DNA of 64,000 nucleotides from Marsupella aquatica. Taxonomy: Eukaryota; Plantae; Marchantiophyta. The stretch lies in assembly GCA_973895155.1 (NCBI GenBank), contig OZ316894.1, forward strand, positions 2,682,457 through 2,746,456. The letters are read 5' to 3'. Position numbers and translations under genes: made by a program. The notes beneath the pieces were generated by a model that worked only from the letters and a program-made list of their open reading frames with translations, did no database searches and was not told the origin of the DNA. Below, piece after piece: positions 1,232 through 43,548 of the stretch. Position 1 is the stretch's first letter, and every line of letters starts with the position of its first letter.

Positions 1232-4200
1232 ATGAGGCCGGACAGGAAGAAGGAGAAGATGGTGGGACAGAACGCAGTGCCTCCTTCGGCAGGGATGATG
1301 AATGTTGTGAGTAGTAACGGGATTGGAATGTCTACGTCGTCGGGCACGGTAGCGGGAGGGGGTTCTTCCTCCTTCCGTGCTGCTGCTGGTGCGGGCAAGC
1401 AAGAGAAGCCCTCCTATAATGCATGCCCGCCTCCTCCCAATTTGTACGGGCCCCCCTCTGCTGCTGCTCCACCACCTCCGCCCCCGGTGGCCGAGAAGGT
1501 CACCAAGGGTGGTGGTGCTGGTGCTCCTCCTTGCGCATCGTCATCCGGGAACACGAGCGACGGAGAGAAGAAGGGCAGAAAACGCCCCGGGCGCAAATCT
1601 AGACAAGTCGTCGATCCAACTTGCTTACTGAACGGTTATGGCGATTCCGCTTTACCATCTGGTACAGTAATACAAAATTTGCCCCTTGTCCACGAATTCA
1701 TCTCTTTCTTCACTGCTTGTATATGCTACAACCCGGTGTAGCTGGCAGGAAAGTCTCTTCCAAGGCGGTAGGACCGTTGAATCGTGAACTGACTGTGACT
1801 GTTTGTTGGCTGAATTAGGGTTGCTGGTTTTCACGTATGACTTGTAACAGTGTGCCAGATAGTTGGTCTATGCCTCTGGCCTTCTTTGCACTTGTCTCCA
1901 TAAGCCCAGACGCATTGTTTGTCAGTTTTTGACCTTCCTCGTTTTCTTCTTCGATTAGCTTGTATTATCATCTAGACATGCTATTCTTCATATGTATTTC
2001 TGCATTAGACATGCTTCTATTTGCAGTCAGTTTCTCTGTATTTGAGGTTTTTCTGTATGGAACGGTAATCTACGCGATAGTGGAATGCTTCACTTCTGCA
2101 GTGAGCTTCCTGGTTTTAGCTGAAAGCTTATCGGCATACATCGAATCTATGTACTGGTAGCACCGGTCGCAAGCCTGGTGCGTTGGTGCACCACTGGGTT
2201 CTCTTTCGAACAGCTCTCCCACAGCGCGCGCTCTGTTCATCCTCCCAGGCCTTGCCTAGTTTCCTACATTGATGTCCGGGTGAATACCATGCCTCTTCGT
2301 CAATTGCTCTACAGATTGAAGAGCTCACAGTTGGTTTCTTTAATTGTTGTTGCGCAGGCAAAACCGAAGGAACTGGTACCGTTGGACAACTCTCACAAGA
2401 AATTAAGAAGCAAGCGAATGGGTCGTCTCATCTTCCAAGCCCAAGCCCAAGTTCTATGCCCAACCCTAGTTTTAAAATTAAGCCAGTCCATGAGTCTTCG
2501 CCAGATTCTGTAGTAGTTGTGAAGTCGTCAGGTAGATCAGAAACTAGGAATGTAGATCTAAGCATTGCTGAGCAGATTCAGGGCAAGCCCACTGCTCAAT
2601 TAGAGCAGTCGTATAGCTCGTCATTCAAGTCATCCACTTTGATGGCTTCTCTTACCTTAGATGCGTCGTGTACAGTAGAGTCCGGAACCGGACAAAAGAC
2701 CAAGACGAAGGACACACTTCCAGTAGGAATTCCCAAGTTGAAATCAAAAGATGCAAACAAAAGTTCGAAGTCCAATGCGGGACCTGGCCCAAAGCGTTCA
2801 GGTTCGTTAGGTGTAGATCCTAAACAATCGTCTCAGAAAGGCTGGAGGATGTGTAATCCAGCAGGGACCACTTCCTCGTATAGTACCGGAAGTATTGATG
2901 TTCCAGATAGTACTGGAATTGCCTGTTCTCCAGGGGACGGAGTGGAAGCCTTTCTTCCTATAGGGAGGTCTTCAGAAGGGTGTTTTTCGCATCCTAGTTC
3001 GTGGCCAGAGTCTAGTAATCTGGCCGCACCCGCTATTTATGTGACTGGACCTCCCGACAAAATTTCAAATGGAGGAAACTCGCACGCGCAGAACTCATCT
3101 CGGTCAAGTCACTTCAATGAGCACCTGTCACCTGAAGCTACTGCCCAATGCCTTGAGGTGAGAATCTGACAACAGGACTTCCTGATAATTACGACCAAAA
3201 ACATCTCAGCTTTAAGCTCTCTTCTTTGCACTCAGAGAGTAGTGCTCCTGGCTTGGAAAGCTGTTTTATGTGCAATATTGGTGGCGTGAATGGTATTGTA
3301 ATTGCATCTTTTAGATTGATTTAGTCGTGCGTTTTACAGGATGGAACAGCTTTCAGGGGAGTCATGCGAGTGAATCCACATTATCGAAGCGAGGTACAGA
3401 GCCTTCACTCTAAACTTGGCCGGGAGCCCTAGCAGGACAGGATTTTGTGCTGAATGGTTATTACCTTTTTAGGCTTTTTGTATGGTGCATGCAAGGGATT
3501 GTAGCTTTGATAAAGGTCTTCGATTTTGTTGCGGTAAAAATTGTAGCTTGTGCATTCTTAATTATTGACATTTTGTCGCAGGCATATGTTACACTCGAGG
3601 GAGTGCCAACCGATATTCTTATTGATGGTCTAGTCTCTCAGAATCGTGCGGTATGTCTCCCTACTTTTTCGTTTTTTCTTATGCAATTAATACTTCTTTT
3701 CCTCAGAGGTTTTCCACTCTGTGTTGTTTGATTCAAAAGCGTTGAAGAATTGAATGCGTTTTTCTTGCATTGCAGATGGAGGGTGATGTAGTCGTTGTGC
3801 AGCTGAATTCGACGTCACATTGGCCTCGGTTGAAAGGGACAAATAACAAGCAGGGCAGCAGCTCAGTGGTCGAGGACTCGACCATCAGATCGCCAAATTC
3901 TGTAGATAACGATGCAGTGTGTGATAGTACGCTAGACCATGACGTAGTTGGTCTTTCGGAGTATTCCTCAGTTTCGAATTGGGACTCGGAGGATACTCTT
4001 GATGGGCAGGCAGTGTTGAGTTCTCTTGGTTCCTCTTTGGGTGAGTGCCAGCCTCGACCTCCTGACGGCGGAGGCTGGGATGACCCCATACCAATCCATG
4101 TTCCTTCCGAGGGTTGTGTCCGTGAGAAACTAAATGGTAATTCAATGGCCGGTTCGTTGAAAGATCTAGTAAGTGCACAAGAGATCGCTGGAAATGGTAT

Positions 4201-7200
4201 TTTAGAAAGTGACAAAACCCCCAGTGAGCAGTCTCTCGCGAAGGTTGCAGCGTTGGTTGCATCTATGCCTGGCAAGCGACCAACCGGCAGGGTTGTCGCA
4301 ATCGTTGGCAAGTCATCTCGTCGAGAAGCAGTCATAGGATTCCTGGAAGTGCAAGGAAATAGCTGCGGAGGGAAGGGCCACAGCAGCGGCGCTGACTTCT
4401 CCCCCCAAAAGTCAGGCAAAAGACAGGGCAGCAGGTTTGGAGGGATAGTGACGTTTGTTCCAATTGATAGCCGATTTTCGAAAATGGTGGTCTTTGGGAA
4501 TGGCATTCCAGAGCAACTGAGTAAGCGGATAAAGGATGGTGACCATACAGTTAGTAACGAATTGGTCGTTGCCCAGGTCGAAGGGTGGAAAGCTGACAGT
4601 GCTCTACCTCGTGCCACGGTGAAGCAGACACTCGGTCCGGGAGGTACCATTGAAGCTCAAACAGAAGCTATCCTCTGTGAAAATGCAATTCATGGATTAG
4701 AGTTCCCAGAGCCTGCGTTGGCCTGTCTACCTAAAGTCCCATGGAAGATCCCCGAGCAAGAGGTGAAGAAAAGAAGGGACTTCAGAGGACTGCGAATCTT
4801 CACTATTGACCCACCAACGGCGAAGGATTTGGACGATGCTTTGTCAGTTGAGCAGTTGGGTGATGAAAATGTCCGCATTGGAGTGCACATCGCCGACGTT
4901 TCATTTTTTGTGCAACCGGACACGGCCCTGGACAAAGAAGCTCAAAACCGGTCAACTAGTGTCTACCTTATTCAGAAAGTGCTGCCCATGTTGCCCCCGC
5001 TTTTGTGCGAGGAGCTGTGTTCTCTCAACCCTGGAGTAGATCGATTGGCCTTCTCAGTGATGTGGGTTATGGACCCAGAAGGGAACATTTTGGATCAGTG
5101 GATTGGTAGATCGATCATATGCTCCTGTGCCAAGCTGACTTATGGACATGCACAAAGCATGATCAGCGAAAAAAGTTCGGAAATGAACGAAGAGCAGTGG
5201 CAGGTGGAGCTAAGTAATGGAGCTAGCGTAGCCCCCCTTCATGGAGAGCACAGCTGGCAGGAAGTTGTGGCTGACGTTCGGAAACTGCATGAAGTTGCAA
5301 AAAGGAGAAGAGAGGCGCGCTTTGATGGTGGGGCACTGAAGCTAGAGAACTCGAAACTAGTGTTTTCTCTAGATGAAGATGGTGAACCTTATGATAGTAC
5401 AATGTACCAGCACCAGGACTCGAATTTTTTGGTTGAAGAGTTCATGCTGTTGGCGAACATGACAGTTGCCAGAGTCATTTCCAGCGCGTTTCCCGAGCGA
5501 TCTTTGCTTCGGAGGCACCCTGAACCAAATATGCGGAAACTGAAAGAGTTTGAGGAATTTTGCACCAAGAATGGATTTGAGCTTGATACATGCTCTTCGG
5601 GAGCACTTCATCTCTCTCTGGAGAAGATGCGGGAGAAATTTCAAGACGATCCTGTTATGTTCAACATTCTGATGTTGTATGCAACCAAACCGATGCAGCT
5701 TGCGAAGTATTTTTGTACGGGGGATCTGAAAGGTCAAGAGGACGATTGGGGCCATTACGCTCTTGCAGTTCCTCTATATACACATTTTACTTCCCCCATT
5801 CGCAGATATCCAGACCTTGTTGTTCATCGAACAGTGGCTGCAGCTCTGGAAGCTGAAAATTTCATTACCAATGATAAGAGAAGTGGTCAATTTGAATGTG
5901 GTACATCATTGCAATGCTTCAGTAGATCAACCGTAGGGAAAGGCGTAAGTGACATTGTTGCAGTACAGAAAGCGCTTGTGGAAGCGGCAGTAAGACACAA
6001 GATCCCACAACTTTCTGAGCTTTCGTTGGTGGCTGCCCATTGTAACGAGAGGAGACTTGCCAGTCGCAATGTCAAAGAAGCGAGTGATAAGTTGTATCTA
6101 TGGTCCTTGCTGAAAAAGAAGCAGGTGAGTTGTAACCTAGACCTAAAGAGCATTCTATTTTGTGCCTGTGAGGTGAGGTAGCCAGTAATTTCTAGGAAGG
6201 TGAGTTGTGACCTAGCCCTGAAAGAGCATTCTATTTTGTGCCTGTGAGGTGAGGTAGCCAGTAATTTCTAGGGATCATGGTCTGCCTTTCATTTTGAGCG
6301 AATCGTCAAGAGGATATACAGTTTGTTCACGGTGATGTTCTTTTAAGATGCTACAGAAACTCATCAGCAGGTTGTTATTTCGTGCAGGGTATGCTTTCAA
6401 GTGCACGGGTGCTGGCTTTGGGCCCAAAGTTTATGTCTCTGTATGTTTGCAAAATCGCGGTATGTGCAATTTCACAAACTCCTTCACTTGTACATTGGGT
6501 CCCCAAGGGCGGGATCAATGCGGGCCTCATAGAAATGTTTTATGTGGATATGGTGTAGAAAGGATCTGTGGAGATAGTTTCATGATTTACTTCATCAGGA
6601 ATTCTTGTTCAACCGAGAAATATTTGTTTAGGATATCCCGGGTTCATTAGGAGCCTCAATGGGTTTTGCTACATCAATTTGTTGTCTCCGACTCATTTAC
6701 CATTTTCTTAGCTGCAGTGGCAGTGAGAAAATCGGCGTAGCGAACGGACCTTACTTGTATTGGATAAAATCATATTTTTCAACAATCTACCGTTGACACT
6801 TTACTTATGATACTTGTGGTTTTTCAACAGATGGAACGTCGCATATATTATGATGAAATAGAGGGGCTGAATGCAGAGTGGTTTGAAGCTACAGGAACTT
6901 TAGTACTGAGCATTTCTTCTGAAAAGCCCACTCATAACAAGAAATACGGTCAGACAAGAGGAAAGCCTAAGAGAACTGTTGCTGATGTAGCTCTTCTGGT
7001 AAATCCAACAGATTCTCTTGCTTCAAATACAAAGGAAGAGACTTACGAAGATTTGATCCGGGAAGTGGAGGCTCGGCTTGCGGGGAAGATCATCTCAGAC
7101 GATGAAGGTATCTTAGGAGATAAAGGTAGTGGAAGTGATGTGGAGGTTGAGCCAGCTGTGCTGCCATTAACTCTGCGGTGGTTCTCGTCAGTGCCAGTAT

Positions 7201-10699: not shown

Positions 10700-11576
10700 C
10701 TTGTTGTGTGTTGGCTCTTTTCATACAATCTACTTAACAAAGAGTGAGATATTTTTTGATATCAGCAACTATTTTGCTGTTTGCTGACACAATTAACTAT
10801 CCAATATTATAGCCCGGAGTATAGATGTGCAAGACAAGATACTTCAATTCTTGCCTCTCAATATCCCATAGCTAATCTGTGAATCTCAAGGCATCAAAGA
10901 TATAATTGAAGATTGGACATCAACTGGCCTTTCCTAGAACGCTATCTCCTGTTTCATCCCTATCTAAACTTCTCAAAAGAAACTCAAGCTAATAACTGTC
11001 CTGACACATAATTACTGTTGTAGCCATAGTATATTGAAGCAGCAGAGCGTCTCAACAAACAGTACAGAGAATAGGATATCCTTTGTGCCTCCTAAACCCA
11101 TTGTGAAGCTGGAGAGCTACCCAAGCGGAAAAAAAGAAACAAAATTTGATGCGCTCAATAAGCCTGGAAAACAGGGAAATGTACTCTCAGAAAAGCCAGC
11201 AAAAACTCCCATGTGACAACATTCAAGTTGTAACTCCCCCCTCCCGCCCCAAATTGCTGGTGAAACGCAACAATCATGAAGTTTAAGTGTAAACAACCCA
11301 CAAAACATGTGTAACAAAATTGGCAGTAGTTGAGAGTGAAGAAACCAAATAACCATCATAAAAATGTCCAACTCAATTGACAGATGTTAAGTATATACAA
11401 TTTGGAAAACCCATCTCAATTTGTAACAGTACAAAAAAAGTCCTGATGGAAAGACAGTGACATTGCGGAATCCTAATGGCATGTATGCGCACAAAAAGCA
11501 GGGGCACCTGAAAAAGAGATCATAAAAAACTACCCCCTCCTTCCCCTCTTTTCTTTGTAGTTGTGGACTTCCCACA

Positions 11577-11920
11577 TGTTGAGCATAGACGACATTCGTA
11601 ACAGCAAGCCCGTGAACCATCCAACGCACAATAGTCGACATAGAGAGATACGTGGTTCACCTCCACATGAGGCTACGTCCACGGGAACACACAAGAGCTT
11701 TACTGCACTCTAGGCCGACCGGCCATACCAAGCATCCACAGCACAAGCTCTCCCTATCTCTCGACTAGCTCCGTAACAATGAGCCTAAGTTCCACCAAGG
11801 TCTGGCATCAGCCCTGGCTATATGCACAACAGCACTACCGCTAACATTAGCTAAGTCCTAACCCGAGTTAGACTAACTGTGGTTAGCTCATGAGTCACAA
11901 GACTAGAGCAATATCTAACA
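11577..11920 (-). repeat. Copia-1 3' LTR, with adjacent PPT (AGGGGGAGTT on -, 11921-11930)
   Basis: Direct repeat of 27143-27486, about 13 substitutions by manual count. Confidence 0.95.
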
Positions 11921-12535
11921 AACTCCCCCTTGACTCTTGTCTTGGGGACTAGACTAAATGCTACCATATGGATTCCTCAGCGGGAAGTTCTAGACAATCA
12001 CCAAACTAGGTCTCCCCCTAAAAACCACAAGGGTTAACTAAGGGTTAACTAGAACTAAGCCGTAGCCTAACAGGAATGAGTAATCCATATACAAATAGTC
12101 ACACATTGCTAAATAACTCTACTTGCTACTACATTAATCCCAGCTGACAACCATCGTCTATTCCAGCCTCCTCCCGATCAGGGTCTTTCCAGAAGACATC
12201 TAGCTGCAAAGATCCATGACTATTCCCGCTAGTTCACCTAATACCACAAAATCAGACGGAAAACAAAACATTCATGCAACCACAGCCCGAAAAGAATCCA
12301 CACCCAAGAACCCTTAGAAAATTGGGAAGCGCCCGGCGCTAGCCAATATTGCACCTAAGAACACGTCTTCACAACTCAAACTTCAAGAAGCTGAAATAAA
12401 AATATAATAGTGACAGTATGTTTGAGGAGCGCCTGGTGCTAGTAAAAGTTGAAAGGGCTTAAAATCAGCCAATTCATCGAAATGGTTACATATTGAAACA
12501 TTAAATAACGTATTTGAAGAAAACCCCATTTCTAC

Positions 12536-15500
12536 CTATAAACTACCAGATGTTTCTGATGCGAAGCTTTCAGATCTGTCCGTGGACTCGGCTTCGTCAT
12601 CAATGTACTTGCTTCGGGAAACATCATCTATATAAGGGTTCCTCATGAACTTCCTGTCTGCTCCCCTCTGAAGACGTAGACCTTTTGTTTCCCAACAAAG
12701 AGTTCTAATTTTGTCAACCCTCCTAGCGGCATTTTTAGCGTATGAGGGCAAAACAAACGGCTTCTCAGGAGTGATAATTACATTCCTAGCTAGTCTCCTC
12801 CGGAGTTGGAAACGCTTCCTCAGATTCCAATCTGACCTGATCCAGTAAAACGGAAAAACATATGAGTTTAGGAGATAAGAGAGCAAGAACCCAGAATTGT
12901 CAACAACACTTGAAAGGATAAAGAAGCTTACTGGAAGAACATTACTCGTCTGAGTCTTTGCTCTTCTCCGAAGAATCTTCCTCCTGTGTTTTCTTTGTGT
13001 CATCTCCGACTTCTCCAGAGGTACCTTCCTCTTCGTCGGAATCAAAATTGAGAACAGATCGGAGCCTATCTTTCTTTTTGCGACCACTTAAATTGGTCGC
13101 AGGAGGAGGCAATATCGGAACATGCCTGGGATCAAGAAGTTCTAAGAAAACCCTTGATGCGGTCTCAACAAACTCACGCCTATTTTCCAACCCAATCACG
13201 ACCAGAAAAATCACCAGCAATGAATGTGCTTCCTGAACCTACAGTCCAATCAAGGACAATATCTCCAGGAAGAGTAAAAAGCTCTATCACCGACTACATA
13301 AAACCAACTGAAAGACAGGCGTTCCCAGCAAAATCCAACTCCGGGCAATGATCTGTCTTCAAGGTTGGGAGCCCAATCAAGTTAGAGATCAAAGGATCTT
13401 CACTTATTGATAGAGGCTTAAACCTTGGATCCTTTGGTACCTTTCCTTTTGAAGAAGTCCGACAAAATATGTCTAGCCTAAGCGTAAATACCTACACGCA
13501 TCGCACACGTTTGGCTCACATTATCAACCGACGGGTAATGTTTCGAGAACTACAGCAAAGACTAAATTAGCGCCGGGCGCCAACAATAAACAAGAGATGC
13601 AACGATCTGTACCTGAATATCGGTCTTTGCTCTGTACATGGGCATAGACATGACGACATTGTGAGAATTGACACAATGGAACTTTTTTGACTGCTGGCAT
13701 GCTGAAATGACCTACGAGACCTGGTCATGGTCATCTGAATACAAGATCGCAAGCATGCCATCATCAGAAAGGAAAGGGTCCATTGCTTTGAAGAAAGAAC
13801 TGGGAACTATGTGGTCTGGTACATTCCACTTTGGAACCCGACGGTCCATGAGCGTAGGTTTAAGTCCAATAGGAAGATAGATGAATCCTGCATTGACACC
13901 AAACGATCTTTCTTTTCCTCCTCTGATTACTCCCTTTACTCGGGAACCTGACTTGATTAAGTCCTTTCCCCATTTCTCTGCATCAGTCACCCAATCTGGT
14001 TTCGCTGCTTTGTTGAAAGCAGTATCAATAAATTCTTGGATACTTGTTTCCACCATGCAATGCCTAGAAGATTTGCTCTTGAAGGTTCCCACATCTCTCT
14101 GAACATCAGTTCCAGCGGCATCATCTCGGGAAGATTCTCCAGCTTGAATTGCCCTTTTCTTCTTCTTCTTTGTATTGGTTGCATCAAGAGGGACGATCTC
14201 TTTCACTTTGTCAATTGGAGTTACTGGGTCTGACTGGGCACCGGTATTGGCTTCGAAAGGCTCCGGAGTGGCATCTACTTTTGTTTCGTCGGTTGCAGCG
14301 TCAGACTTTCTCCCACCTAAAGGAAAAAGAGCAGAATTTATTCAACGTTGAATAATAGCGCCAGGCGCTGTCCAAACCAATTGAAAAAACAAACCAATAG
14401 ACATAGTCATATAGCAGCGCCTGGCGCTAACCAAAATGTGAAGCTACAAGCTGAATGACAACTTACGTTTTTTGGCGGACCGTGTTGAGGTACTCGGTGC
14501 CGCAACTTCGGTTTTTGCTTTGGCTCTGGGTTTGCGACTTCGATCAACATGAACAATCATAGTTTCGCACACCGATTGCAATTCTGCCGCCGACTTGCTC
14601 ACATCACCTTTGATTCCCTGCTTCATGTCGGACACAAACTTGGGAGGGACTTGAGACTTTGAAAGCTTATGAAATGCGTCTTTCTCAATGTCTTTGAATG
14701 GAGAGTCCCATCTATCGGTGTCCAAATACCAAGGACAATGAATTCTCTCCCATTCTGACAGTTTCCTTGGTGGAAGACACCCTTCAGTGGGATACATTGA
14801 ATACACGTCGGCCAGTATGTCTCCTTCAGGAACAACAATCCACTTTTGGAAAGCAGCAGGGTATGCCCAAAAGTAATCTGGCTTCACAATCTCCATATGC
14901 ATTAAGAAACGGTACAGGTATCGTTTGGCCCTCTTCTGATTCTTGAGGGTGTAGTCAACCTTGTCGGGATACTTGGAAGGCCACATTGTATTAAAAAACT
15001 TGCCTTTCACAGCGTCCCTGAATTTCTTGAAGTCATTTGAGACTATTTCAATAAGCGATTCAATCGACTCACACTCCCACTCCCACTCCTACAACCGATT
15101 GGCGGGGACTATATCACTGACCTGGCGTAGGGAGGTTTGCAGCAAACCAATAGCGATTCCCTCCACAGTGTTCCAAGTTTGCCAGGTATGGCACCATTGC
15201 TTCACTGGATTGTCATTAACGCTCTGTGGATGGAAGAATTGTTTCCTCAGCTCCGGTGTACAATGGGCAACCAGAAGGGTACTCCTCAAACTTTTTGTTC
15301 TCTGCGACCCAAATTGCATCCTAGGAAGGACGAATCTCTGGCGTGCAGATCTTGACTTCACCATTGGAATTTGTTGGTTGGACATAAAACAGCATGCCGA
15401 TCTTAGAATTGTATCCTGTGCTCTGAAAGGAGTCTTTCAGCTTCTCTATCGAAGGACTTCCCTTCTGTAATGTTCGCACTACTTCCATATGAAGTAGTCG

Positions 15501-15828
15501 GCACATTGGAATCCTTGGCGGATCCTTGTCATGTCCTCGAGAAATCTTTTCCAAACGACATAATGTGTTTGGAGATCACATCGTAAATAGTCAGTGACGT
15601 CTCTCTGAAGTCCTCCACAGCAAATGAATCAGAATCATCCATCTTCCCTCTCTTGCTATTTGGGAACGATACAGCGGGTTGTGCTTCAGAGGCTCGCGAA
15701 GCAGTGGATCGAGTCACTCGACGACTGTACACGGATCCTGAAAATGAGCACTCAGATGTTTGCGAGGGAACGACCTCTCTGTGTCTGTTTCCACTAAAGC
15801 ATTGAGAGGAGGATAAGGTAGGGTCCAT
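12536..15828 (-). pseudogene. Intron-containing accessory gene: ParB-like N-terminal segment plus beta-class N6-adenine/N4-cytosine DNA methyltransferase-like domain; disrupted by stops and frameshifts
   Basis: Minus-strand translation at ~13295-13150: SVIELFTLPGDIVLDWTVGSGSTFIAGDFSGR/VIGLENRREFVETASR (motif I-II signature). A degenerate motif IV-like AGFIYLPIGL...VPKWN...FLSDDGMLAI lies upstream at ~13890-13750. ParB-like RIPMCRLLHMEVVRTLQKGSPSIEKLKDSFQSTGY at ~15515-15410. Introns at ~13493-13612 and ~14318-14466. Confidence 0.65.
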
Positions 15829-16828
15829 TGCTCGCACAAGGACGAAGGAAGCAATGACGACCACCGCGCTCTTTCTGTACAGCGAACGGCAAAAACCCGT
15901 CACACAGCTTCGATCGTAATGTACTTAACATGGGAAATAAGAAGAATCTAGAGCACAGAGCGTGACATATACGCTAAGGAAACTGAACTCCTGGCCTGGA
16001 TCTATGACACATGTCATTATCTTATTCGACAACACATAAGGGGATCAATGTATTGAGGGTCACGCAACCTATAGTTACCGTTAAATATGACCGTTGAAAG
16101 GAAAACCTGAGAATATATAGAATTAATTCTTACTCACCAAATAGTAGTGCCCGGCGCTAGTAATTTCCAAGACCTAAAATCTTTAATTTTTATGTCAGTT
16201 GGAAATTCAATATAGAGCCATAAGAGGCGCTAATATGCCATTACTTTCCCCAAAATCCGGTTTTCTCGTATTTCTGATACAAAAGAAAACTAGCGCCCGG
16301 CGCTAGCAAAAAACAAAGCTTTTTCATCCTTTTGAAGCCTCATACTTGTAGTTTTTACCATTGTGTACGTTCATAATATGAATGATATCAATACTAGCGC
16401 CTGGTGCTAATCATCCAGGGTCTCCGTTAGGAATTTATTTTATGTCATTTGCTTTTATTAGCGCCTGGCGCTACACATAAATTGACGTTAGGTGGACCCC
16501 AACCTTTTGGATTGTTATGAATAGCGCCAGGCGCTGAACATAAATTGACTCTGCATGGACCTCTACTTTTGCAATGTTTTTAATAGCGCCTGGCGCTATT
16601 CATCATCTGATATTTCTAGAACAAAAGGGTTCTTCCTAAATGACGTTTATCGTTAATGCCGTTGATCGTAAATGACATTGATATAACGACAAAACACATT
16701 TATGGTGTTAGAGGATTGTCTTATTATAACGGCTTTAGGGAACTGTTAGTCAGGATTGATAACAGTCCTCGTAGGTGGAATTTTGATTCATAATTTTCCT
16801 GCGCTCATTCACTTCCAAGGCTTCTGTG

Positions 16829-19800
16829 ATGTCTCAGTCAATCGTAGTTACCCGTATGTCCACCGGTGACATTGTTTCCATTCCAGTGTCTGTGGCCAAA
16901 AGGTACAGGCAAATAAGTAAGGTTTATCTTTGTGGAAGGTTTGATTTGCGCATGAATGACATAGAGGCAATCGTTCAGGAGGGAACGAAAGCCAATGACT
17001 TTGAATCTGTCGCACTTTTTGATGTCGATGACGGGGTGAGATTTTGGCACCTTAATGCTGGGTTGCGCTACTCCATTGTCATTTGGGAACCAAATCAAGG
17101 AGATCGGCAATCCCCTTAGAGGGATCCGGTGGATGTAGTTGCTCTTTCCGATAGTGATGATGAGGAGCCACCAAGGATCCCCTTCGTGGAGCCTTCGGCG
17201 CCTGAAGTGGTCTTGGTCAAAGAGGAGATGCCATCGTCGCAATCCCATATTGTATACCGGAGAAGTGCAATGGACGCGCTGCTCAAGTCAACTGGGTCCA
17301 GCGAACTTTCGAGGTTCATTTCGGCTGGAAACTTCCGGCATGAACAAGTACCTTGTTTGCCACCGAAGTACGATGGAAACGTAGTGTTTGAGTTGCCTCC
17401 ATCGTCGGGAATTCTTTCAAAAGGATCCCGTCTACGGGACATGGACCGAACCAAGGATTGCTACATCTGGACTAGAATATTTTCTACCACTGCAAACGTG
17501 CAGCCCAAGAAATACTGGGAATTTGGTAAAGTCACTTGTACTGGATTTATTGAGTGCAGGAATAAAACTTGTGACTACTTCCGCCAAAAGAAGAGGCGGA
17601 ATGCAAAGGCATGGGCTGGTACCCCAAAACTTGGAGGCTCTCACCGTGTTGGATCGTTCATTGAGCAGGGTGGAGTTGTTTGTCATTATTGCCAGCAGCT
17701 CCCTTTTTGTGTAGAGGCATGCTTTGCAAGACTGTTTTATATGTATCCTCAAGTTCTGCTTGACTAAGATACCTGTAGTCACATGTCTCGCCTTGCGATT
17801 CATATGGGCACCCACAACCATCCTTGTCGTAAGGTATTTTCCTGGAGTGCGGAAAAGGTAGTTGAAGATGTCATAAAAAAAAATTTGGAAGGCAATCCGA
17901 CTTGGACGCCTGCCAGGATTAAAAATGTAGCGACAAGATCTTTTGTACAGTCTTTGTGTGAGAGCCTGGATGAGATTGAAGATATCGAAGAGACAGAGAT
18001 TTTCCAGTCTCTAATGGTAGTTTCTACTCCACAGAAGTTTGCATCTCTTTTCAAGAGTGTTAGACAGGACCAGAAAGGCCGTGGAGAGTTGGATTTTCTT
18101 GTTCGGTATCAAAAGAATATAAACATGCCTTTTCTACATAGGTACATCCTTCCAGGTCAAGGATCTCAAGAAGACAGACCTCACATATTTAAGATGGCTT
18201 CCAAAGGCCATGGGTCTGGGGTGGATCTTTTGCGGCAAATGCAACCTGGAGGGATGCTTGAAGGTGCCTGGGTAAGCTTCAATGTCATGAAATGAATGAC
18301 CAAGGATTGGGTGACTTTCAGCGCACACGTTTACAATCACAATTACCGCGCATTGTGTACAATATTTACTTGCGAGCTAAAAGCTGAGGACACGGCGTCG
18401 TTCGAGAAGGCTTGGAGATTAATGATTGAGGTTTCCAAAGAGAATGGGTTAGATAATCCAACCATTCATGGCTTCATGGCAGACAATGCCCAAGCCGGAT
18501 GGTTAGCAGTCCGAAATGTTTTTTTTGGAGGGCACCCAAACCCTGAACGAGAGAGGACATACGCTTTTCATTTTTACCAAGCTTTTCATCGCCATTCTGT
18601 TGAAGGAGTGTTGGAAGAGAAGCAGGCGGAACATCGAATGCTATCGGATAAATTACGGAACGCACCGACATTTGTAGAGGCTTACCGACTTTCAAGAGAG
18701 ATTGACCTATGGTGGCAGTCGGGTAACTGCTTACCTGGAAAGCTCCGAATGCTTCAGAGTTGGATATCGTGGTGGGTCGTGCGTTGGAGGCAGTGGGGAA
18801 ATTTTATTCGCTTGGTGAGTAATAGCGCCTGGCGCTAGTAATATGCAACTCAGATTGCTTTGTAGAAGTACATTTTTCAGATGACATTCCTCAACATTCC
18901 ATCCAAAGAATCCAAATAATGTAATTGATTCTCAAATATTGACCTGTTTTCATAAACATGTGATTACACAATAATATTCATGGTTTTGTCTAAATGTTCT
19001 GCCTAGCGCCTGGCGCTAGTATGTTTTGTGCATTCTTACTAGTGTTTATGCTTTGTCGTTCCAGGACAAAAGTGTTGAAGAAGGCGCTAGGATTCCTAAC
19101 TGTACCGGGTCAGAGTCTGTTCACGCAGGAATGAAAGCATGGGTAATGAAAAAAAGGTTGGGCTCTTTGAGGCATGTGAAATGGATCAGAATCAAGCTGT
19201 AGTTTGCCATAGAGAACCAAAAATCACATTTTAAAGTCTCCAAACTCGGTATTCGTTCCCTTTAAGAACAAGATGGGGTTGGTTTGATGTAATAAACTAA
19301 AAACAAAGCTTTAAGCTCTTGTGTCACACATAGTAATCAATCTTGACTACTTTAATCAGGTACTTTGAAGATCGCTCCACAGCGGTGAGTAGTTTTTGAT
19401 GATAACTCAACATCAGATAACCTTCAATTAAGCAAAAGATTGCAATTAACAAAACACAAGGAAAAATCTCTCAGAGTATGCTTAAGGGAGTCTGGAATAG
19501 ACCAAGGTTACTCCTTAGACATAAGTAATAATGGAATGACTTTAAGGGAATCCAAATCCACACGGCTTTTCAGATCTAAACTGCATACTAGAGTATCCTT
19601 TTAAAATGCCGGCAACATGTCTTGACCTTTCTTCCTAAGTGATACTTAGTCAAGATCTAAAAGGATAAATACTTCAGCATTTAGATGGTACTAAGCAACA
19701 TGAAGGTGGAAACATCATTTCCAATGCAACTTAAACTCAATGAGTTAACTCTAAGAACTTGTGAGATTACAATGTGTCACCAAAGCGGAATCTGACATTA

Positions 19801-22555
19801 TAATTCACGAGATTCATAACTGAGGTTTTACTTCAAGTATTTGGGTTCCAAAATACAAGAAGGAGGTAAGTCTCTCCAATTATTAAGTCTGATTTAGAAC
19901 TCGTAGGTTCAGAATCAATAAACTTAACAAAAGGGAGGCAAAAATGCAGAACTTAACCATCTCTCTACACTAGGGGAAGAGGTATAAATAGTGATGAACT
20001 ACAGAATAAGAGGTCACAGGGTCGAAGAGACATGCCTCTTCATAACCCTCAAAAAGTCAAAATGACGATTCAATATGTGGAAAGCCGGAAAAAATGGCTA
20101 AGTATGAACTCTTAAACTCTTAAAAACTTAAACTCTTAAAAACGTAAAAACTTAAACTCTTAAACTCTTAATTTCAGTATACTAAAAATTGAGTAGATTC
20201 AACTATTTTTAACTTTCTACTCCTGGTTCGGAAAACTCTGAAATTTTTCCAGTAGGGTTTCCTAGGTACAGACTACAGCCTAAAGAAGTATGACAGCTTC
20301 TAAAGCTCTAGAACACATTTCTAAAAATCAGATAAGATGCACTACTCTAAAAACTAACTAAGAACACTTAGAGACTTCTTCAAGCTTGCTGTCGGATGTC
20401 CTCTGGTTCTAGTAACTCCACAAGGGTAACAATTCGGTTCTGGGTAACCTCTATCAGCTTAGCTTGGCGTGGGGATCCTCTGGAGTATGGTAGGCACCTC
20501 AGTTGTCTCTCAGGATACATCAAAGGCATTCTCTTCATCAAATAACAGGAATCTATACGAAGAGCTTCTCTGTATATCCCGATCACATCATAGTTGTTGC
20601 AGGTAGCAGCATACACTTGAGGATAATGAAACAGGAACTCATCACTACTCATCATCCTGGAATAGAAGGGTCGAAGTCTCCATTTGACATCTCTGAAATA
20701 CCGGTTGAAGCTGGGCAGAGTTTGAGAGGTAAGGTGGAAGAGAAGTCAGTAATGAGCGCCTATGTCTTGCATTCCTTCCCTCTTCAAGGCCTGCTCCTCG
20801 TTTTGTTGCAAAGTCCCGTTGGAGTTAGCCGAGCCTGTCACAATCGCGGGGCTCGCCAGTTCGCAAGTCGCAACTCTTAAAGTCGTAAAGTCTTAAAGTA
20901 GGGTTTACTCGTAAACCCTTAAACTCTTAAACTATTAAACACTTCAACTCTTCAACTCTTAAACTCTTAAACTATTAAAGTAGGGTTTACTCGTAAACCC
21001 GTAAACTCTTAAAACACTTCAACTCTTCAACTCTTAAACTCTTAATCTTCGGCAGAGTTTAGTTTACTCGAGTTATCAGCAAATATAGTTTAACTACTTC
21101 AAAAATTTAAAAATTTTCCGGTTTTCTTCATGACTTTGGAATTACTGCCTATCTACACAAGCTATATCGCAGGTTGCAGCATATACCGCATATCGGAAAG
21201 GATTGAGTAGAGGAAGAGGTCCTACAATATGGGAACTGGCTTTCTGTTCAGGTGACCAGGCAAGTTCCCCAAAGCTGTTCAAGGATGCAATGAACATGCT
21301 CCTCTCCAATGCAGCTGAGTTTGACTTGGAGAGAAGCGTTCCTCTCAATGGAGATGTTCTAACAAAGTCTGTCAAGAGGAAAGGACCTGCAACTGGGATT
21401 GTCTCGCCACAAGACTCCCATCGGCATGATAAAGTCCTTATCACATTGCCGAATACCAGATCAATCAAGCGTAAAAATCTGCACCACACAATGTTTGCTT
21501 TCGTATTGGAAGAAAAACCTGATGACATTTCCGTTGTCAATCTCTCAGGAAGTGATGATTCAAGGGATGTAGATAGTGATGATTTCAGTACACCGCAGAG
21601 TCGACATCAATCACGTTCAACACAATACCCACAAAGCGCCCCCACTGTACTTTAGCAGACATCGCTCCAATCTCCAGTTCTTGAAACAGAAGTCATGCAG
21701 GGTTCATGGCATCTGCGTCGAACATCAAGATTTGGGGCCGATCCACACTGCAACGCGTCATTTGGTGGTAGTTCCGAGAGAGATGAGTGTCAAAATAGAG
21801 TGAAGAAAGTTGGGTTCCCCTCATCAAACGGTGTCATTGGAATTGTTGTCAAAGGACAACGCATGTTCAGGGGGGAACCCATAGCCGAAATGATATGGTT
21901 CTGCCCAAACAACACATGTTATCGGGGCCGTCCCCGCCGTGGTGTAGTGAACCTGCCCTCCGTTCCTGATGTTCTTCCTGTTATAAAAGGAACAAATGTT
22001 TCGGAAGCTGAGATGAAGTATCTTGTTGACCAGGGAATACCTATAGCCCGAGGAAGAGACGGTCCTCTACCTCCACCATCACTTTTCGAGCTTCAAATCA
22101 ACGTAAACTTATTTCCAGAGAGAGTGAATCTTTTGGAACCCACTGTTCGTCTCCAAAGTTGGAATGGAAAGAACACGGTTCCTCGATCAACCTTGACCCA
22201 TGGCCACATGACGAGGATTGAATCTGCAAGAAAAGAGACCATGTCCGTCCAGGGACAGTGTGATGTTTCTATTGGGAACTCATGGGGGAAGCAATTCAAA
22301 GTACAAACACATGAGAATCTAAGGACGCCGAATAGTTACTTTGTGCAGATTTGTATTTTTCCGACTTGTTCTTGTGAGGATTTCTATCATCGACATTCTC
22401 ACAGACATTCATATATGCCTTGCAAACATTTGTACTGGGTTTTCCAGACCGTTTTCAAACTAGAGGTTGAGGAATCTACTTTGACCAGCCAACCAATTCT
22501 CACAGTTGGAGAAGTCCGACTGATCTTGGAGAGGGAGAATGCTCATGGTTTATAG
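16829..22555 (+). pseudogene. Mutator-like transposase: GCM/WRKY-like Zn DNA-binding domain, MULE DDE core and C-terminal SWIM finger; in-frame stops, intron 18815-19064, solo-LTR insertion
   Basis: C-x-G-x3-C-x4-C...C-x2-C...RLAIHMGTHNHP; WVSF(N) in the first-Asp position; FMADNAQA (second D); ERT(Y)AFH (CxxH-like); SESVHA (E); SWIM CSCEDF...CKH. ORFs 16826/17129/17783/18296 share a frame separated by single stops, as do 21203/21695. Confidence 0.85.
19198..21157. mobile_element. Solo LTR (1960 bp) inserted in the MULE transposase
   Basis: TGTAG...CTACA termini; TSD CAAGC at 19193-19197 and 21158-21162; removal restores MDQNQA|ISQVAAY; internal AAACTCTTA tandem tracts at ~20107-20170 and ~20915-21045. 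Confidence 0.9.
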
Positions 22556-23203
22556 AGAAGGATATATTTGTCCTATACTTGAAACGGTTATATTAGTTTT
22601 TGTCGTATTACAACGGTATAGTTTTATGTTAGCGCCTGGCGCTGGGATGGAAGTCTTCCTTATTATCATTTACTTCATTGTAATCCTATCAATACAAATG
22701 ATATTTTAAATTTTTGTTTCCCACATTATGCATTCATCCAATGTCATTTTCTAAATGGGTTGGTTGTTTCCACCATCGCCGGTGGTCTTTCAAATTGTCC
22801 AGAGTTTTCATTTCTGGTTTTCTGCCTTATTGTTGGCCGATAATATTATGTTACTTATGGTGGGACCGACCATGTCAATGTTTTTTCCCATGGCATTCAC
22901 TGGTAAATGTTTGTGTGTCAGTGGTTTTTGGGACACTATTTTCCAGAAGTATGTTGGTGATTCCGGACTCACTTATCATCAGACAACAATTGTTGCCCTG
23001 TTAGTTGGTTCTAAGCTCTAGAGCGTAAATGAAGCGTAATGCATATTGCTTTTTTCAGATGTATCTGGCTTGAAGTAATGAAGTATTCTCCTGTTCCAAT
23101 GACTAACATTTCCTGGTAACAGCAACCTATCCCTAATAACAGCAAAAAAAAATCTGCTACCAGAATTCCTGTTTTCCTGTTTCATGTCTCGGTGGCCATA
23201 CCC

Positions 23204-25676
23204 AATCAGGCCTAGTACAAGTCATCAAATACATCAGACTCCCTACTGCCTTCTCATAAGGAATCTTAGCCATCAGACCTTTCTCCACAACATCCGTAGG
23301 AGAAAAAGCCGATGATAACTTGAAATGTGAAGCTAAAGGAATACTCACTGGCTTACAGTTCTCCATGTTGAATCGTGCAAGTACTTTCCTCGCATACTAG
23401 CCTTGACTCAAGCACAACTGTCCAGTCTTAGAGTTCCTAAAAATCTCCATCCCTAAGATCCTCTTGGCCTTACCAAGATCCTTCATCCTGAATTCAACAC
23501 TCAATTTTGCCTTGAGACTATCAACCTCAGATTGATCTTTAGCCACAATCAGCATGTCATCCACATAGATCACCAGAATGATGAAACCAAATACATCATT
23601 CTTGACTGATTTCATATATACACAAGGATCATACACCATCCTTGTAAAACCTTGAGCAAGCATGAAATCATCAAACCGCTTGTTCCATTGTCTGGGAGAC
23701 TGCTTCAATCCATACAAGGACTTGAGCAATCTGCAAACTAAGTTCTCTTGGCCCTTCTTCATAAAGCCTAGTGGTTGTCTCATGAAGATCAACTCTTCCA
23801 AGTTGCCATAGAGAAAAGCAGTAACAACATCCATCTGATCCATCACCAGACCAAAAAACACAACAAGCTGACACAAGATCCGAATTGTGGAATACTTAGC
23901 CACCAGTGAAAAGACCTCATTGTAGTCCACTCCTTTCTCCTGAGTGAATCCCTTGGCAACAAGCCTTGCCTTGTAGATCTTATCTCCACCCTCTGAAGGA
24001 CTGTCCTTCACCTTGTAAATCCACTTACTGTCCACCACTTGCTAACCTCTTGGAAGCTCCACCAGCTCCCATGTCTTGTTGTCACTCAAAGATTGCAACT
24101 CCCTTTGCATTGTTGCATTCCAATCATGCTTCTGCTCTGAAGCACAAGCCTCACTGTACGAAGAAGACTCTCCTTCTTCCAAGATCAAAGCCATATCATC
24201 TTCATCAGGTGCAATGTCAATATCATCTAGCTTAGATGAGTCTGCCCATTGACCATACCTGGTAGGAGCTTTAGTAGAACGACTAGAAGTTCTTCTAGTA
24301 GATGACTCAGGTTGATCTACTGCTGCTGCTGGTTGAATTTGAGGTACCCCAGCAACAATCTGCTCCTCTTGTTCCATCACAGGAACTAGCTCCAAGCCCG
24401 GAGCTTCTCCATCTCTCCTGCCATGAACAACATCTGAAATCTTACAGATCCAAGTCCAACAACTTGACATGGGATTCCATTTCCCATCAACACTAACTCG
24501 TTGGAAACCATGTAAGAACTGAAAAAATCTCTCCTAGAGCAAATGTGAAAAGTACATGTATTATCTAGAATCCAGTTATCACTACCTAGATTTGACACTA
24601 CGTTGAGCATAACCTTGACATCACAATATGTCATCATCATCAAGTAAATCTACCTCATGCGAGCTTGATGTCGCGTTAGCAGATGCAGTAGGGACCTTTA
24701 CTCGACAATCCCTTTTCATGTGGCCAGGCTTGCCACAATTCCAACATGCAAGAGGCTTCCTCTCTTGCAATTTCCCTCTAGATTTAGATCTCCCCCGTGA
24801 TGTAGATCTAAACCTGTTCTGCCCATTCGTGCGCTGCGCTGCTCTTCCCCTGTTCACATTGAGCGCAGTGCCAGAAGAAGATGTTGTCTGTGATTGATCC
24901 AACTTCTTCTGAGCATCATCAAACTGTAAAGAGCTCACCACCTCATTATACAAAATGGACTTCAGATCTCTGTACAAGAGCACCTATTTCAAGCCCTGAT
25001 AAGACGGCGGTAAGGAGCTTAGCAAAAGCAAGGTCTTATCCTCATCTTCAACTCCTTTTCCCACGTTTGACAGATCCACCGCTAGACTATCAAACTCATC
25101 CAGGTGATCCTGCATCTTGCTCCCTTCCTTGAGCCTGAGGCTCATCAAGAGAGACTTCTTGTACAACCGGTCTGACGCATCTTCCCGGTAGTACTTCTCT
25201 CTAAGAGCCTTGAACAATGACGCGCATTCCGCATAATCATCCAGCTGCTTGATGATGTGCGGCTTGAGATATAGCATCACTGCGTTGACAACAATCACCT
25301 GCTCCTGTCTCCATTGTCTCACAGAAATCTCCTCCTCTCCATCATACTGCTCTCGCAATGAAAGCAGATGAGCTAAGCCCATGGCCCATAGAACACCCTT
25401 CACTTGCTTCTCCCAGAGCAAGTAATTAGTACGATAATTGTACTTCTCCACCTCAAACTTTACTCCTCCGAATCTTGCCATCTCCCTCTTCTTTCCTACT
25501 ACCAATAGCTCTGGTAGTAGTACAGCTTCCTCCACTGCACGCCTCACAGGTGATTGTACCGGTGATACAAGTTCCTCCTCAAACGGTAGCAGCTCCTCCT
25601 CAGACTCTCTGTGTGATCGTTGCGATCTTGAAGCTCCACCGACACCAATTCTTCTAGTATCCTCCGAGTCACTCAT
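23204..25676 (-). pseudogene. Copia-1 gag / protease / RT remnants; integrase and RNase H missing
   Basis: UBN2-type gag; CWNCGKPGHMKRDC knuckle; WILDNTCTFH protease; RT motifs YKARLVAKGFTQ, SLYGLKQSPRQW and YVDDML; RT ends at CTRPD. Confidence 0.9.
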
Positions 25677-27128
25677 ATGAAACAATCACGAAAAAATGTA
25701 TTTTTTCGAAACTTCTCACAAAACTTGAAACTCAACACCCCTGCATAGCCCACAAAGCTAGGAGTCCAATACTGAAAGCCAAAATCAAAATCAAAATTTG
25801 ACAGAAAAGTTATTCAAATTTCGGTTGGGGTGGGTAAAACCTTGGGAAACTCCCCCGTTTTGACCACCTCGGAGAATAACCAAAATACCAAGTACAACCC
25901 GTCATCGGATCTGTGATGTGATCGGTGCGCCGCGTTGCTAACTCCAGTGGCAACGTCCCCGCCAAAAAAGAACCAAAAAAGTTACCGTTTGGCGGATGGA
26001 ATCTTTGTCGGACGGCCAAAAAAAAGCTCTCTATTTTTTGGGAATATTCCCGCATAGCACCGCAGGTCTCACAGGGGGCCATTCCCCCTGTCGAAGCGGT
26101 TAAAATGCCGGGTCACCTGGCCCGGGAGAACCAATAGAAAGAGTCAGGGAAAGAGTTAAAAATTGGGGCCCTAAAGGGGTTGTTTAAGCCCCTTACCAAG
26201 AAATACACCCGGTATGGGGCCGGGGCACACAAAGGGCGTATCGGACGAGGGTGTACGCATGTATTGTGTCAGGGCGTATGCCAAAAGGAGTCTCAGTGTC
26301 GGGAGGGGGGACAAAACAAGGGCGACCGGCGGTAGCAGCCTACCGTCGCGCAAAGGCGTGATACAAAAGGGGAAAAAAAGGGGGGGAAATCGTGATACAC
26401 ACAAAAAATTCACCCTAAAGTAACCCCAAAAAATGTCGAGTTAAACACAAACAAGGCCGGTTACAAACCTAAACCGTCGCCGTTTCCAATGAGAAAACAA
26501 CGAGTTACCGACAGGATTTGTTGCCGAATCACACCGGCGCCGTCTGCAACTCCAGCAGTGTAAAAGCTCCCGCCGCATCGCCTTCACATAGCGTCAAGTG
26601 CCAATCCCGGGCTCAAAATGACTGCCTTGCCGCGATCAAACCGTTGAGCCGTAGCACTTTGCGTTTCTTCCACCAAGTCGGACATCATGAAGAGAAACCT
26701 GGTTCAGATGTGAACAAGCTCCATAGCTTGTGAAAAAACCTGAACGCCTCCTTCACTCGTCACGACGCACTCGGTAACAACTCGGCAGCAATCCACCTAC
26801 CGAAACGACCAGCTCGCTTCAACCTTCAACTTGAGTTACAACATGCGACGCCTCCCGCACTGCACAGCTCACACCGTTGAAAACACAAACTCTGGTCTCT
26901 CCCCCAAAAAACTGTCGAACACGAATAAAACCTGAATGACGCAAACTTTGATTCCTCCGCACCACGGATACCGATCAGCAAGTTCTAACCACCGTTAGAA
27001 AGCCCTCTCACCTACCTATCTGCACAGCCACACACATTCAAGTTTCATGCAACGAAACTCCGAATGTACCATTGACAATGAACGCTGGAAAAACCTGTCA
27101 TGAAAAAACCTCGTCACCTCCCAGGCAT

Positions 27129-27140
27129 GCTCTGATACCA
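27129..27140 (-). promoter_or_regulatory. Primer-binding site (tRNA-iMet) of Copia-1
   Basis: TGGTATCAGAGC on the - strand, 2 nt inside the 5' LTR boundary. Confidence 0.93.
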
Positions 27141-27142
27141 CT

Positions 27143-27486
27143 TGTTGAGCATAGACGACATTCGTAACAGCAAGCCCATGAACCATCCAATGCACAATAG
27201 TCGACACAAAGAGATACGTGGTTCACCTCCACATGAGGCTACGTCCACGGGAACACACAAGAGCTTTACTGCACTCTATGCCGACTGGCCATACCAAGCA
27301 TCCACATCACAAGCTCTCCCTATCTCTTGACTAGCTCCGTAACAATGAGCCTAAGTTCCACCAGGGTCTGGCATCAGCCCTGGCTATATGCACAACAGCA
27401 CTACCGCTAACATTAGCTAAGTTCTAACCTGAGTTAGACTAACTATGGTTACCTCATGAGTCACAAGACTAGAGCAATATCTAACA
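27143..27486 (-). repeat. Copia-1 5' LTR
   Basis: Direct repeat of 11577-11920. Confidence 0.95.
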
Positions 27487-38270: not shown

Positions 38271-38699
38271 ACTGCCTCTATGAACCCGATTCGGACAAAC
38301 CCTAGCGTGGGTAAGCTGGCAGAATCAGGTAGTGATGCAGTAGGGATGACAGGTATCCTGTTGGGGGTGGCTACTGCCATGGTACGCACCCCATTATTTT
38401 CAGCGACAAACATGCTAAAATTGGGAGTTGGTCCTGCAGAAGTGTTCAGATTGGCAGCTACACTCTGTGAGAACACTCCAGTGGTTGCTTCCCATGCAGA
38501 AGCAGCTTGCAATGTTGAAGCAGTGAAGACCATACCACCTACTACTACTAGTGAGACATGGCATGCAGCAGCAGCAAGATTGGTGGATTTACCAGCACGC
38601 CCTGCATTTGAGAGGACTAGGTTTAAACCTAGTGTTGTATCATTGGATAATCGGAGTGGTATCTTCTGATTAGTTGGGCCTTCTGGAGCAGTATACCAG

Positions 38700-39020
38700 C
38701 CAGAGAGGGTGTTACTAGATACTGGTGCTCAACCCTTGATGTTGGGAAAGTCTGTCATACGTGGATTGGGATTGCGTCCAGAGGATTTGGAGGATTGTCC
38801 CTTTCCCATTCAGACTTCATTGGGGGGACCTACACCTACACAGCACATTACCAAGGGACCTCTTGATTTGAGGATTCAAGAGGTCATACCACAGATAGCT
38901 CACAGATACAGGCGCGAGCTATTCTGACTAAGGCAGAGTCATATGATGTGTTGGTGGGATGTACAGTGCTCTACCCTATGGGATTTATTCTTGATTTTTG
39001 GGAGGAATCAGTGTCATATA
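38700..39020 (+). pseudogene. Gypsy aspartic protease (disrupted)
   Basis: VLLDTGAQP catalytic motif and YDVLVG motif. Confidence 0.8.
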
Positions 39021-39419
39021 GACCTGATTGGCAGTCAGGAGATGCTCGATTGGGCAAATTGCCAGTGATATTTAGTGGACCTGTGGGAGGCCCTAAATCC
39101 ACACCATTGTCTTTGGCAGCATTCAGTGGTCTAATTGCTGGACCTGATGATTTGATTGAGGATAATGCGCATGCAGCAAATGTTCCACCATTGGAGGAGT
39201 CTCATAAGGAGCACATCATGCGAGGATTACCTGTTGGCAGTGTTGTGCCACCAGTGTGGGGCACTGCACAGGCCTTGCCACAGACAGCAGCATGATTGGT
39301 ACATGATGCATGGCGTCATGCTTTTACACCACAGTCAGGAGCAGAGCAGCCTCTTGCAAATGGACCTGTGACTCTTTCACCATTGGATACCACTCCTATT
39401 GCTTGGCAGTATCCACCGG

Positions 39420-40380: not shown

Positions 40381-40606
40381 TGAACAGTTGCGGATGCGCT
40401 CTACTGGAATTACTGATTGTCCCTTGGTGAGCTTGCGGTCCACTAAGACAGTACTGACCACAGTTGGGGGCGAGCAGACAGTCCATGGACCTATGGCAGG
40501 ATTGGCCAAGGTTGGACAGATTGTTGAGCAGGAAGGGACTGCTCAATCTACTGCTAAATAGCAATCATCGGCTATCTCTTCTACCCTACAAAGAGATATT
40601 AGGGAT

Positions 40607-43546: not shown

Positions 43547-43548
43547 AA

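Follow-up and report, generated by a model that had tools for sequence, protein, structure and literature searches.

A dead two-gene transposon remnant in the liverwort Marsupella aquatica with element-restricted palindromes and a predicted ParB/methyltransferase-like accessory protein

The window considered here is a stretch of 64,000 nucleotides (64 kb) of Marsupella aquatica DNA (contig OZ316894.1, positions 2,682,457 to 2,746,456, assembly GCA_973895155.1), and its positions 12125–23204 hold a dead copy, truncated on its left side, of a repeated plant DNA transposon with two genes; the copy lies within a Copia retrotransposon, and the transposon is likely to belong to the Mutator/IS256-type superfamily. 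A transposase pseudogene lies head-to-head with an intron-containing accessory pseudogene, and noncoding parts of the element carry an array of one short palindrome. In relatives of the accessory protein two folds are predicted, a ParB/KorB-like N-domain and a β-class amino-methyltransferase-like C-terminal part. By analogy with plasmid KorB, the accessory protein may bind the palindromes of its own element as a dimer, may load there with nucleotide and spread, and may thereby control chromatin or transcription; we put this forward tentatively, at a little short of an even chance. An earlier note on this DNA had described the divergent gene pair with introns in the accessory gene, the confinement of 14 palindromes to noncoding DNA, the β-class signature, the unity of the block as one mobile element, and its decay to pseudogenes, and each of these descriptions is upheld by the results below.

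The host Copia element (11572–27486, minus strand) has long terminal repeats (LTRs) at 11572–11920 and 27138–27486, which are 349 bp long and 96% alike; it is interrupted in its reverse transcriptase (RT), the end of which is missing together with RNase H. The window contains a second Copia copy, whose match starts at 23205 and continues through RT and RNase H, and this places the right end of the transposon (no strand assigned) at 23203–23204, and contig depth shows a step at both ends of the remnant. The depth data come from four public runs, which belong to two studies and to organisms A and B; no RNA data set is among those listed as containing the sequence. The contigs of these runs reach all 30 bins, the summed depth is similar over both genes (407–851 in run X1, the solo LTR described below being excluded), and depth rises more than 40-fold into Copia on both sides of the element. 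To the left of 12125, contigs in all four runs run on with the remainder of a fifteenth palindrome, of which only a stump (12125–12128, plus strand) survives at the junction with the Copia 3′ region, and Copia-level depth stops near 12126. The left edge, previously put at 12135, is therefore at 12125 and is a deletion scar rather than a terminus; the deletion removed the left end of the element and part of Copia. The breakpoint lies inside the palindrome and shows microhomology to Copia over about 2 bases. Mutator/MULE-IS256 elements have terminal inverted repeats and a 9–11-bp target duplication. A terminus near 12181–12215 with a 3-bp or 5–10-bp target duplication, and a reading of 12135–12200 as a continuation of Copia, were both rejected because element contigs extend left of 12125. 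The ratio of observed to expected CpG in the element minus its palindromes is 0.68 versus 0.53–0.62 in the flanks, a gap too small to show protection.

The palindrome has a 13-bp core, AGCGCC-N-GGCGCT, which is present in 10 exact copies and in 14 copies at one mismatch or fewer, all within 12328–22643; a 15-bp form is present in 5 exact copies, 13 at one mismatch or fewer, and 14 at two or fewer. In the remaining 53 kb of the window the core is not found at two mismatches or fewer, and shuffled windows contain 0.05 core matches at 1 mismatch. When three mismatches are allowed no extra site appears inside the element, so that the array lacks a tail of decaying sites. Among the 168 arm positions only 4 show a difference, and all four letters are found at the central base. 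All 14 sites lie outside the exon model, though about 70% of the element is coding; 5 are intronic (in three of the four well-supported introns), 6 lie between the genes, and 3 lie in the flanks. Those at 12328 and 12428 (12328–12440) are in the 3′ flank of the accessory gene or in introns of further exons, that at 13569 is in accessory intron 2, and those at 14357 and 14416 are in accessory intron 1 (13569–14428 for the three). The intergenic group (16146–16597) comprises sites at 16146, 16292, 16396, 16460, 16523, and 16585; those at 18824 and 19005 (18824–19017) are in the transposase intron, and the last (22631–22643) is 3′ of the transposase stop, the final 560 bp of the intact right end having none. 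None of these sites is assigned a strand. The intergenic spacings are 146, 104, 64, 63, and 62 bp, equivalent to 13.9, 9.9, 6.1, 6.0, and 5.9 helical turns, and three other short spacings between palindromes are out of helical phase; the last three intergenic palindromes probably originated in one tandem duplication. There are also contigs in which palindrome-like ends flank 36–37 letters that are absent from the window, a hint of more arrays in the lost part of the element.

The transposase pseudogene (16829–22555, plus strand) consists of exon 1 (16829–18814), an intron (18815–19064), and exon 2 (19065–22555). Exon 1 is a single frame with three stops, exon 2 is split by a 1.96-kb solo-LTR-like secondary insertion (19198–21157, no strand assigned; TGTAG...CTACA with a 5-bp duplication, CAAGC), and another stop and one frameshift are present. 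The insertion is missing from other copies, as contigs join across it in three of the four runs; it contains 8-bp tandem arrays and has deeper coverage in the runs than the element that it interrupts. Of the catalytic residues, the first Asp reads Asn (18281), the second Asp is at 18482, and the Glu is at 19113, and a SWIM-type motif is present at 22367–22429. Seven relatives were found, six with 40–63% identity and one, a Riccia protein, with 30%. The two Asp are separated by 66–67 residues in the five sequences measured, and the later Glu lies within ESIH or ESVH; (C/D)xxH follows the second Asp in six of six relatives (DxxH in five and CxxH in one) and is YxxH in the window copy. Three Cys/His motifs are kept in all seven transposases, and CxC-CxH in both of two. 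Enzymes of the Mutator/MULE-IS256 type have a D-D-E triad with about 60–70 residues between the two Asp, together with a WRKY/GCM-type finger at the N-terminus and SWIM at the C-terminus, and (C/D)xxH after the second Asp marks Mutator/IS256-type enzymes, though it also occurs in other superfamilies.

The transposase had been described as a GCM-like-DDE-SWIM enzyme. The D-D-(C/D)xxH-E arrangement and the SWIM-type motifs in the relatives agree with this, but neither GCM nor MULE gives a Pfam match at E ≤1, the SWIM profile reaches only E 0.58, and the protein has no match to any Pfam, NCBIfam, or PDB-sequence entry. In structure comparisons with a weak model (predicted local distance difference test (pLDDT) score 57), ISCth4 occupies four of the first five Foldseek rows (E 0.02–0.04), and VIA is matched with Z 7.7 and a root mean square deviation (rmsd) of 12.5 over 201 aligned residues. 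Because the model is weak and no family profile matches, the enzyme is likely, rather than proven, to be a Mutator/IS256-like DDE-SWIM transposase, an assignment based on its sequence motifs. A comparison of viral contigs with the transposase alignment gave 60 pattern matches and no relatives. The start of the gene (16829–17110, plus strand) encodes a small domain whose model is like ubiquitin-like folds (DWNN, Z 7.1) and which has no Pfam match.

The conserved Cys/His motifs raise the question of which protein reads the palindromes. If the transposase does so through an N-terminal zinc-binding domain, for end synapsis or self-activation, the accessory protein would be a helper with some other target, an arrangement that we consider unlikely. 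It is in keeping with a 2026 preprint in which the AtMu1 transposase is reported to activate cognate copies sequence-specifically (10.64898/2026.08.24.746577), and an abortive cut might produce a left deletion that, like the one here, has its breakpoint inside a palindrome. However, the sites are internal and intronic and stop short of the right end, and the presence of ParB-like genes next to inverted repeats in another, unrelated superfamily of transposons suggests that the shared reader is the ParB protein.

The accessory pseudogene (12536–15828, minus strand) has exons at approximately 15828–14467, 14316–13613, 13491–12946, and 12836/12831–12536, separated by GT-AG introns, and contains stops and frameshifts. 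Over its whole length the gene is collinear with Riccia sorocarpa R1sor_008990, a protein with 25 further paralogues in that genome (26 in total, 672–1244 amino acids), as would be expected for a mobile gene; the full-length forms have 1104–1244 residues. A search with the 5′ part of the gene gave 30 proteins, of which 29 are true relatives; the other, P0041, was set aside as a repeat protein with no relationship to the family. In the comparison with R1sor_008990 the window copy skips from residue 238 to residue 474 of P0028, so that about 235 residues have been lost at about 15288, and what survives in the window (15282–15548, minus strand) is the first half of the ParB-like domain; the lost part includes the DGNHR motif, and no DGNHR or GNH motif is present in any frame of the window copy. 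Two contigs depart from the window sequence at 15288 and continue beyond it, suggesting that the missing part is retained in other copies. The middle of the accessory protein has no homologues among 406 candidates, and the protein has no homology with the transposase. After the accessory stop there are two possible small exons (12134–12391, minus strand) in which variants of other copies clear the stops in one frame, and the gene may therefore extend into the lost left part of the element.

The N-domain of full-length relatives is predicted, with moderate support, to have a ParB/KorB-like fold. The model is of a 1104-residue Riccia paralogue (P0070), in which the N-domain was folded within the whole protein rather than alone; the mean pLDDT is 66 and is mostly greater than 85 across the N-domain. 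Among the best 50 structure rows two span the N-domain, and both are ParB-family proteins: KorB (Z 7.8, rmsd 3.8, 134 aligned residues) and PadC (Z 6.4, rmsd 5.0, 132 aligned residues). The ParB-like N-terminus that had been claimed for the window copy thus appears in its relatives, but its core is deleted from the window. In the Atlas the N-domain is closest to DUF3723 (0.96), followed by a ParB_N cluster (0.92) in which that family is assigned to 11% of the members; an Atlas search with an 84-residue open reading frame (ORF) from the window gave no usable match, and a comparison of the ParB alignment with PDB sequences gave nothing credible. ParB/Srx CTPases have a GxxR motif that binds phosphate and an Asn farther downstream; in the accessory family, 31 of the 34 rows with letters retain the Arg of DGNHR, and 33 of 34 a downstream Asn. 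In KorB, an Arg and an Asn are needed for the binding and hydrolysis of CTP (PMC11790492), and the two residues of the accessory family may be equivalent to KorB Arg117 and Asn146. Viral models include ParB-annotated proteins and also methylases, and among the papers searched none treats DUF3723 and ParB together.

The predicted β-class amino-methyltransferase fold of the C-terminal part has strong support in the model of P0070, which matches M.MboII, CcrM, M.PvuII, and N4CMT at Z 14–16 (M.MboII, Z 16.1, rmsd 4.5, 209 aligned residues; CcrM, Foldseek E 2e-7). In the window the domain occupies 13186–14062 (minus strand), with a PF01555 match at 13186–13323 (E 2e-6, 28.3 bits versus a curated cut-off of 26.7), and the fold order is permuted, motif IV (YLPIG, 13865–13879) preceding motif I (DWTVGSG, 13231–13251). 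Motif IV is visible in 16 Riccia rows, a stray IPT in P0043 not being counted, and is [DN][LMI]P[ST]G in every one of them. Motif I (D...GxG), which binds S-adenosylmethionine (SAM), is largely kept, with its GxG present in 6 of the 9 rows that show that motif. The pattern of active enzymes, (D/N/S)PP(Y/F/W), is thus lacking, as all 16 relatives have Ser or Thr where the aromatic residue would be, and the window copy has Tyr at the position of the motif IV Asp. At the codon at 13869, most of the depth from other host copies encodes Thr in three of the four runs, and in X2 the figure is 86 of 195. In N4CMT and CcrM the aromatic residue of motif IV makes a stacking contact with the target base (PMC10406627), and the loss of this residue makes self-methylation doubtful; it is more likely, judged from these motifs, that the domain is a pseudo-enzyme that binds SAM or DNA than that it is a working DNA methylase.

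Self-marking by methylation, one of the functions suggested in the earlier note, is weakened by these substitutions, although the Asp residues kept in the Riccia motifs leave it some support. If the accessory protein were an active amino-methyltransferase, it would write N4-methylcytosine (4mC) or N6-methyladenine (6mA) on or near the palindromes, blocking or mimicking 5-methylcytosine (5mC) of the host. This appears improbable. The predicted β-class fold is complete, the site is CG-rich and holds CCNGG, eukaryotic 4mC enzymes exist, and the same proposal has been made for an Ectocarpus transposon (PMC12477816); against this, the loss of the aromatic residue is general in the family, the Asp is replaced in the window copy, and the amino-methyltransferase domains carried by DIRS1 transposons are thought to be inactive (PMC4738411).

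Transposase relatives are encoded in nine metagenome loci, most of which are too short for linkage to be judged. In one (L008), a remnant of a ParB-family gene (E 6e-18) lies head-to-head with the transposase relative, about 5.2 kb upstream. A second (L002), a relative whose noncoding DNA is long enough for its motifs to be judged, shares the position of the transposase intron and contains nine copies of ACCCTAA, all in the transposase intron or 3′ flank. Because the palindrome of the window element is found in none of the nine loci and L002 has another motif, the motif seems to be family-specific, like the targets of VANC proteins. Telomere-like ACCCTAA or AACCT(G/C) repeats are present in noncoding DNA, with no palindrome, at positions 1886–1985 and 3561–3795 of L002 and 1–545 of L003.

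The telomere-like ACCCTAA box is bound by host proteins, and the palindrome could likewise be a site for a host factor, or else an intron or RNA signal, with the ParB-methylase gene as unconnected cargo. We judge this decidedly improbable: the intronic sites, one of them 9 nucleotides from a donor, and the motif of L002 are compatible with it, but six sites lie between the genes, the 53 kb around the element have no palindrome near host genes or other elements, and a simple RNA hairpin would need a spacer of more than 1 nucleotide. It is highly improbable that two unrelated elements became adjacent by chance, as might be supposed from the absence of a listed contig bridging both genes and of homology between their proteins, since introns of both genes contain the one palindrome, depth stays level throughout the block, and the head-to-head linkage recurs in L008.

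In the reading that we favor, which keeps the self-recognition inferred in the earlier note and in which the accessory protein binds the palindromes, an intact copy of the element would make a ParB/KorB-like dimer; a dimeric reader would be expected from the 2-fold symmetry of the 13–15-bp site. DGNHR and the downstream Asn would form a nucleotide (CTP) pocket, permitting loading at the palindrome and possibly spreading, as with KorB. Sites in introns, spacer, and flanks would tile both genes while leaving the coding sequence undisturbed, as VANC sites do, and the methylase fold might serve as a SAM- or DNA-binding module or as a decoy. The preferred outcome would be anti-silencing of the VANC type, but self-repression would fit the KorB analogy equally. 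A broader version, that in land-plant Mutator-like elements a ParB CTPase clamp of bacterial style loads at intronic palindromes, spreads, and overrides silencing, with the disarmed methylase as a reader or decoy, and that the DUF3723, PAG3, and Sola genes represent a single module that unrelated transposon superfamilies of plants, algae, and fungi have each put to use, is doubtful as a whole.

A number of observations weigh against binding of the palindromes by the accessory protein. The Cys/His-rich domain of the transposase is another possible reader. The KorB match, at Z 7.8, is below the caution line of 8 for the tool, and HMMER searches with 26 N-domain sequences gave no ParB_N match and only weak rows for DndB, DUF1015, and DUF6551. 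The motif IV Asp is kept in 15 of 16 Riccia rows and the motif I Asp in 9 of 9, so that some methylase activity is possible. The co-occurrence of the two genes and the palindrome that was predicted for other loci is found in part: linkage is seen in one (L008) of the three loci with upstream DNA, L003 has no ParB-family gene within 2.3 kb, L009 is a doubtful relative, the palindrome does not recur in any of the nine loci, and the motif of L002 is non-palindromic, with the upstream gene off the contig. Finally, the level summed depth over the two genes is not a copy number, and among the contigs listed none bridges them.

Elsewhere in the window, an LTR element with Ty3/Gypsy order (37400–44330, plus strand) has a C5 cytosine methyltransferase domain (PF00145, E 7e-10; ORF 39296–40222) upstream of its RT, RNase H, and integrase; capture of C5 methyltransferases by retroelements has been reported for dinoflagellates and charophytes (PMC5890265). 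The nearest host-type genes are an uninterrupted 811-residue RNB/Dis3-like frame (3746–6181, plus strand) and a potassium transporter frame (60070–61248, plus strand).

The system had been called undescribed, but genes of this type are reported on algal transposons, with proposals of self-binding and self-modification (PMC12477816; bioRxiv 10.1101/2025.02.11.637652). Among the closest is Sola1-1_Ec32 of Ectocarpus, in which a 1104-residue protein with ParB-like and N4C/N6A-methyltransferase parts is encoded opposite the transposase and self-binding and self-modification were proposed (PMC12477816). The present element resembles it in the combination of ParB-like (here with moderate confidence) and amino-methyltransferase parts in one protein of about 1100 residues opposite the transposase. 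It should be noted that this likeness is one of described architecture and that Sola1-1_Ec32 differs in having a Sola-1 transposase, a brown algal host, and a length of 21.5 kb; the string “palindrom” is absent from the main text of that paper, and the passage on the gene does not discuss the catalytic motif. PAG2 and PAG3, from red-algal Plavaka, Zisupton, and Chondrus Mutator elements, likewise include a ParB-like accessory gene with inverted repeats nearby, for which binding to its own element was proposed. PAG3 of Plavaka is a ParB fusion beside inverted repeats and has homologues on Mutator elements (bioRxiv 10.1101/2025.02.11.637652). In these, as described, ParB is fused to a 2-oxoglutarate oxygenase, the methylase is encoded separately as a SET fusion (PAG2), and the repeats are tandem arrays beside the gene, whereas the palindromes of the window element are dispersed through introns.

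VANDAL21 of Arabidopsis, with VANC21 (PMC5735166), shares with the present element an accessory protein and a short family-specific motif that is enriched in noncoding parts, including introns, spacers, and ends. The VANC motif is, however, asymmetric and forms arrays in which all copies point the same way, the parts of that report drawn on here mention neither a ParB nor a methylase domain for VANC21, and the function of VANC21 has been demonstrated whereas that of the accessory protein is predicted. The best structural match of the modeled N-domain, KorB-OB of plasmid RK2, has an interrupted palindrome as its binding site and works from a distance as a clamp that depends on CTP (PMC11790492); it differs in being a bacterial plasmid repressor with KorA and a ParA as partners, in having GARRYR in place of DGNHR, and in having no methylase domain. 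DUF3723, the nearest Atlas neighbor of the N-domain, is similarly a transposon auxiliary gene, conserved in fungal Starship transposons (bioRxiv 10.1101/2021.12.13.472469), but Starships are tyrosine-recombinase elements, and the likeness is one of language-model features, with no alignment. The β-class amino-methyltransferases (CcrM, M.PvuII, and rotifer N4CMT; Marchantia DN4MT1 was not compared directly) share the fold and motif order of the accessory family; CcrM and N4CMT keep DPPY or SPPY, in contrast to the D[LMI]P[ST]G of this transposon-borne family.

The literature search, whose scope did not extend to supplements and a cited green-algal report, gave no paper that describes such an element from a land plant. 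The features that appear to be new are the land-plant, Mutator-like carrier, the dispersed intronic palindromes, the likely pseudo-enzyme, and the likeness to Starship DUF3723. Given the degenerate motif IV, it should not be taken for granted that 4mC or 6mA is written by genes of this type. If the proposed function is correct, the accessory protein would represent a eukaryotic ParB-type clamp and a second, independent route to anti-silencing and would give the first functional handle on DUF3723. Whereas the algal ParB-type accessory genes are so far untested proposals, the sharply defined candidate site and the 26 paralogues in the sequenced genome of the liverwort Riccia make the protein-site pair of the present family directly testable.

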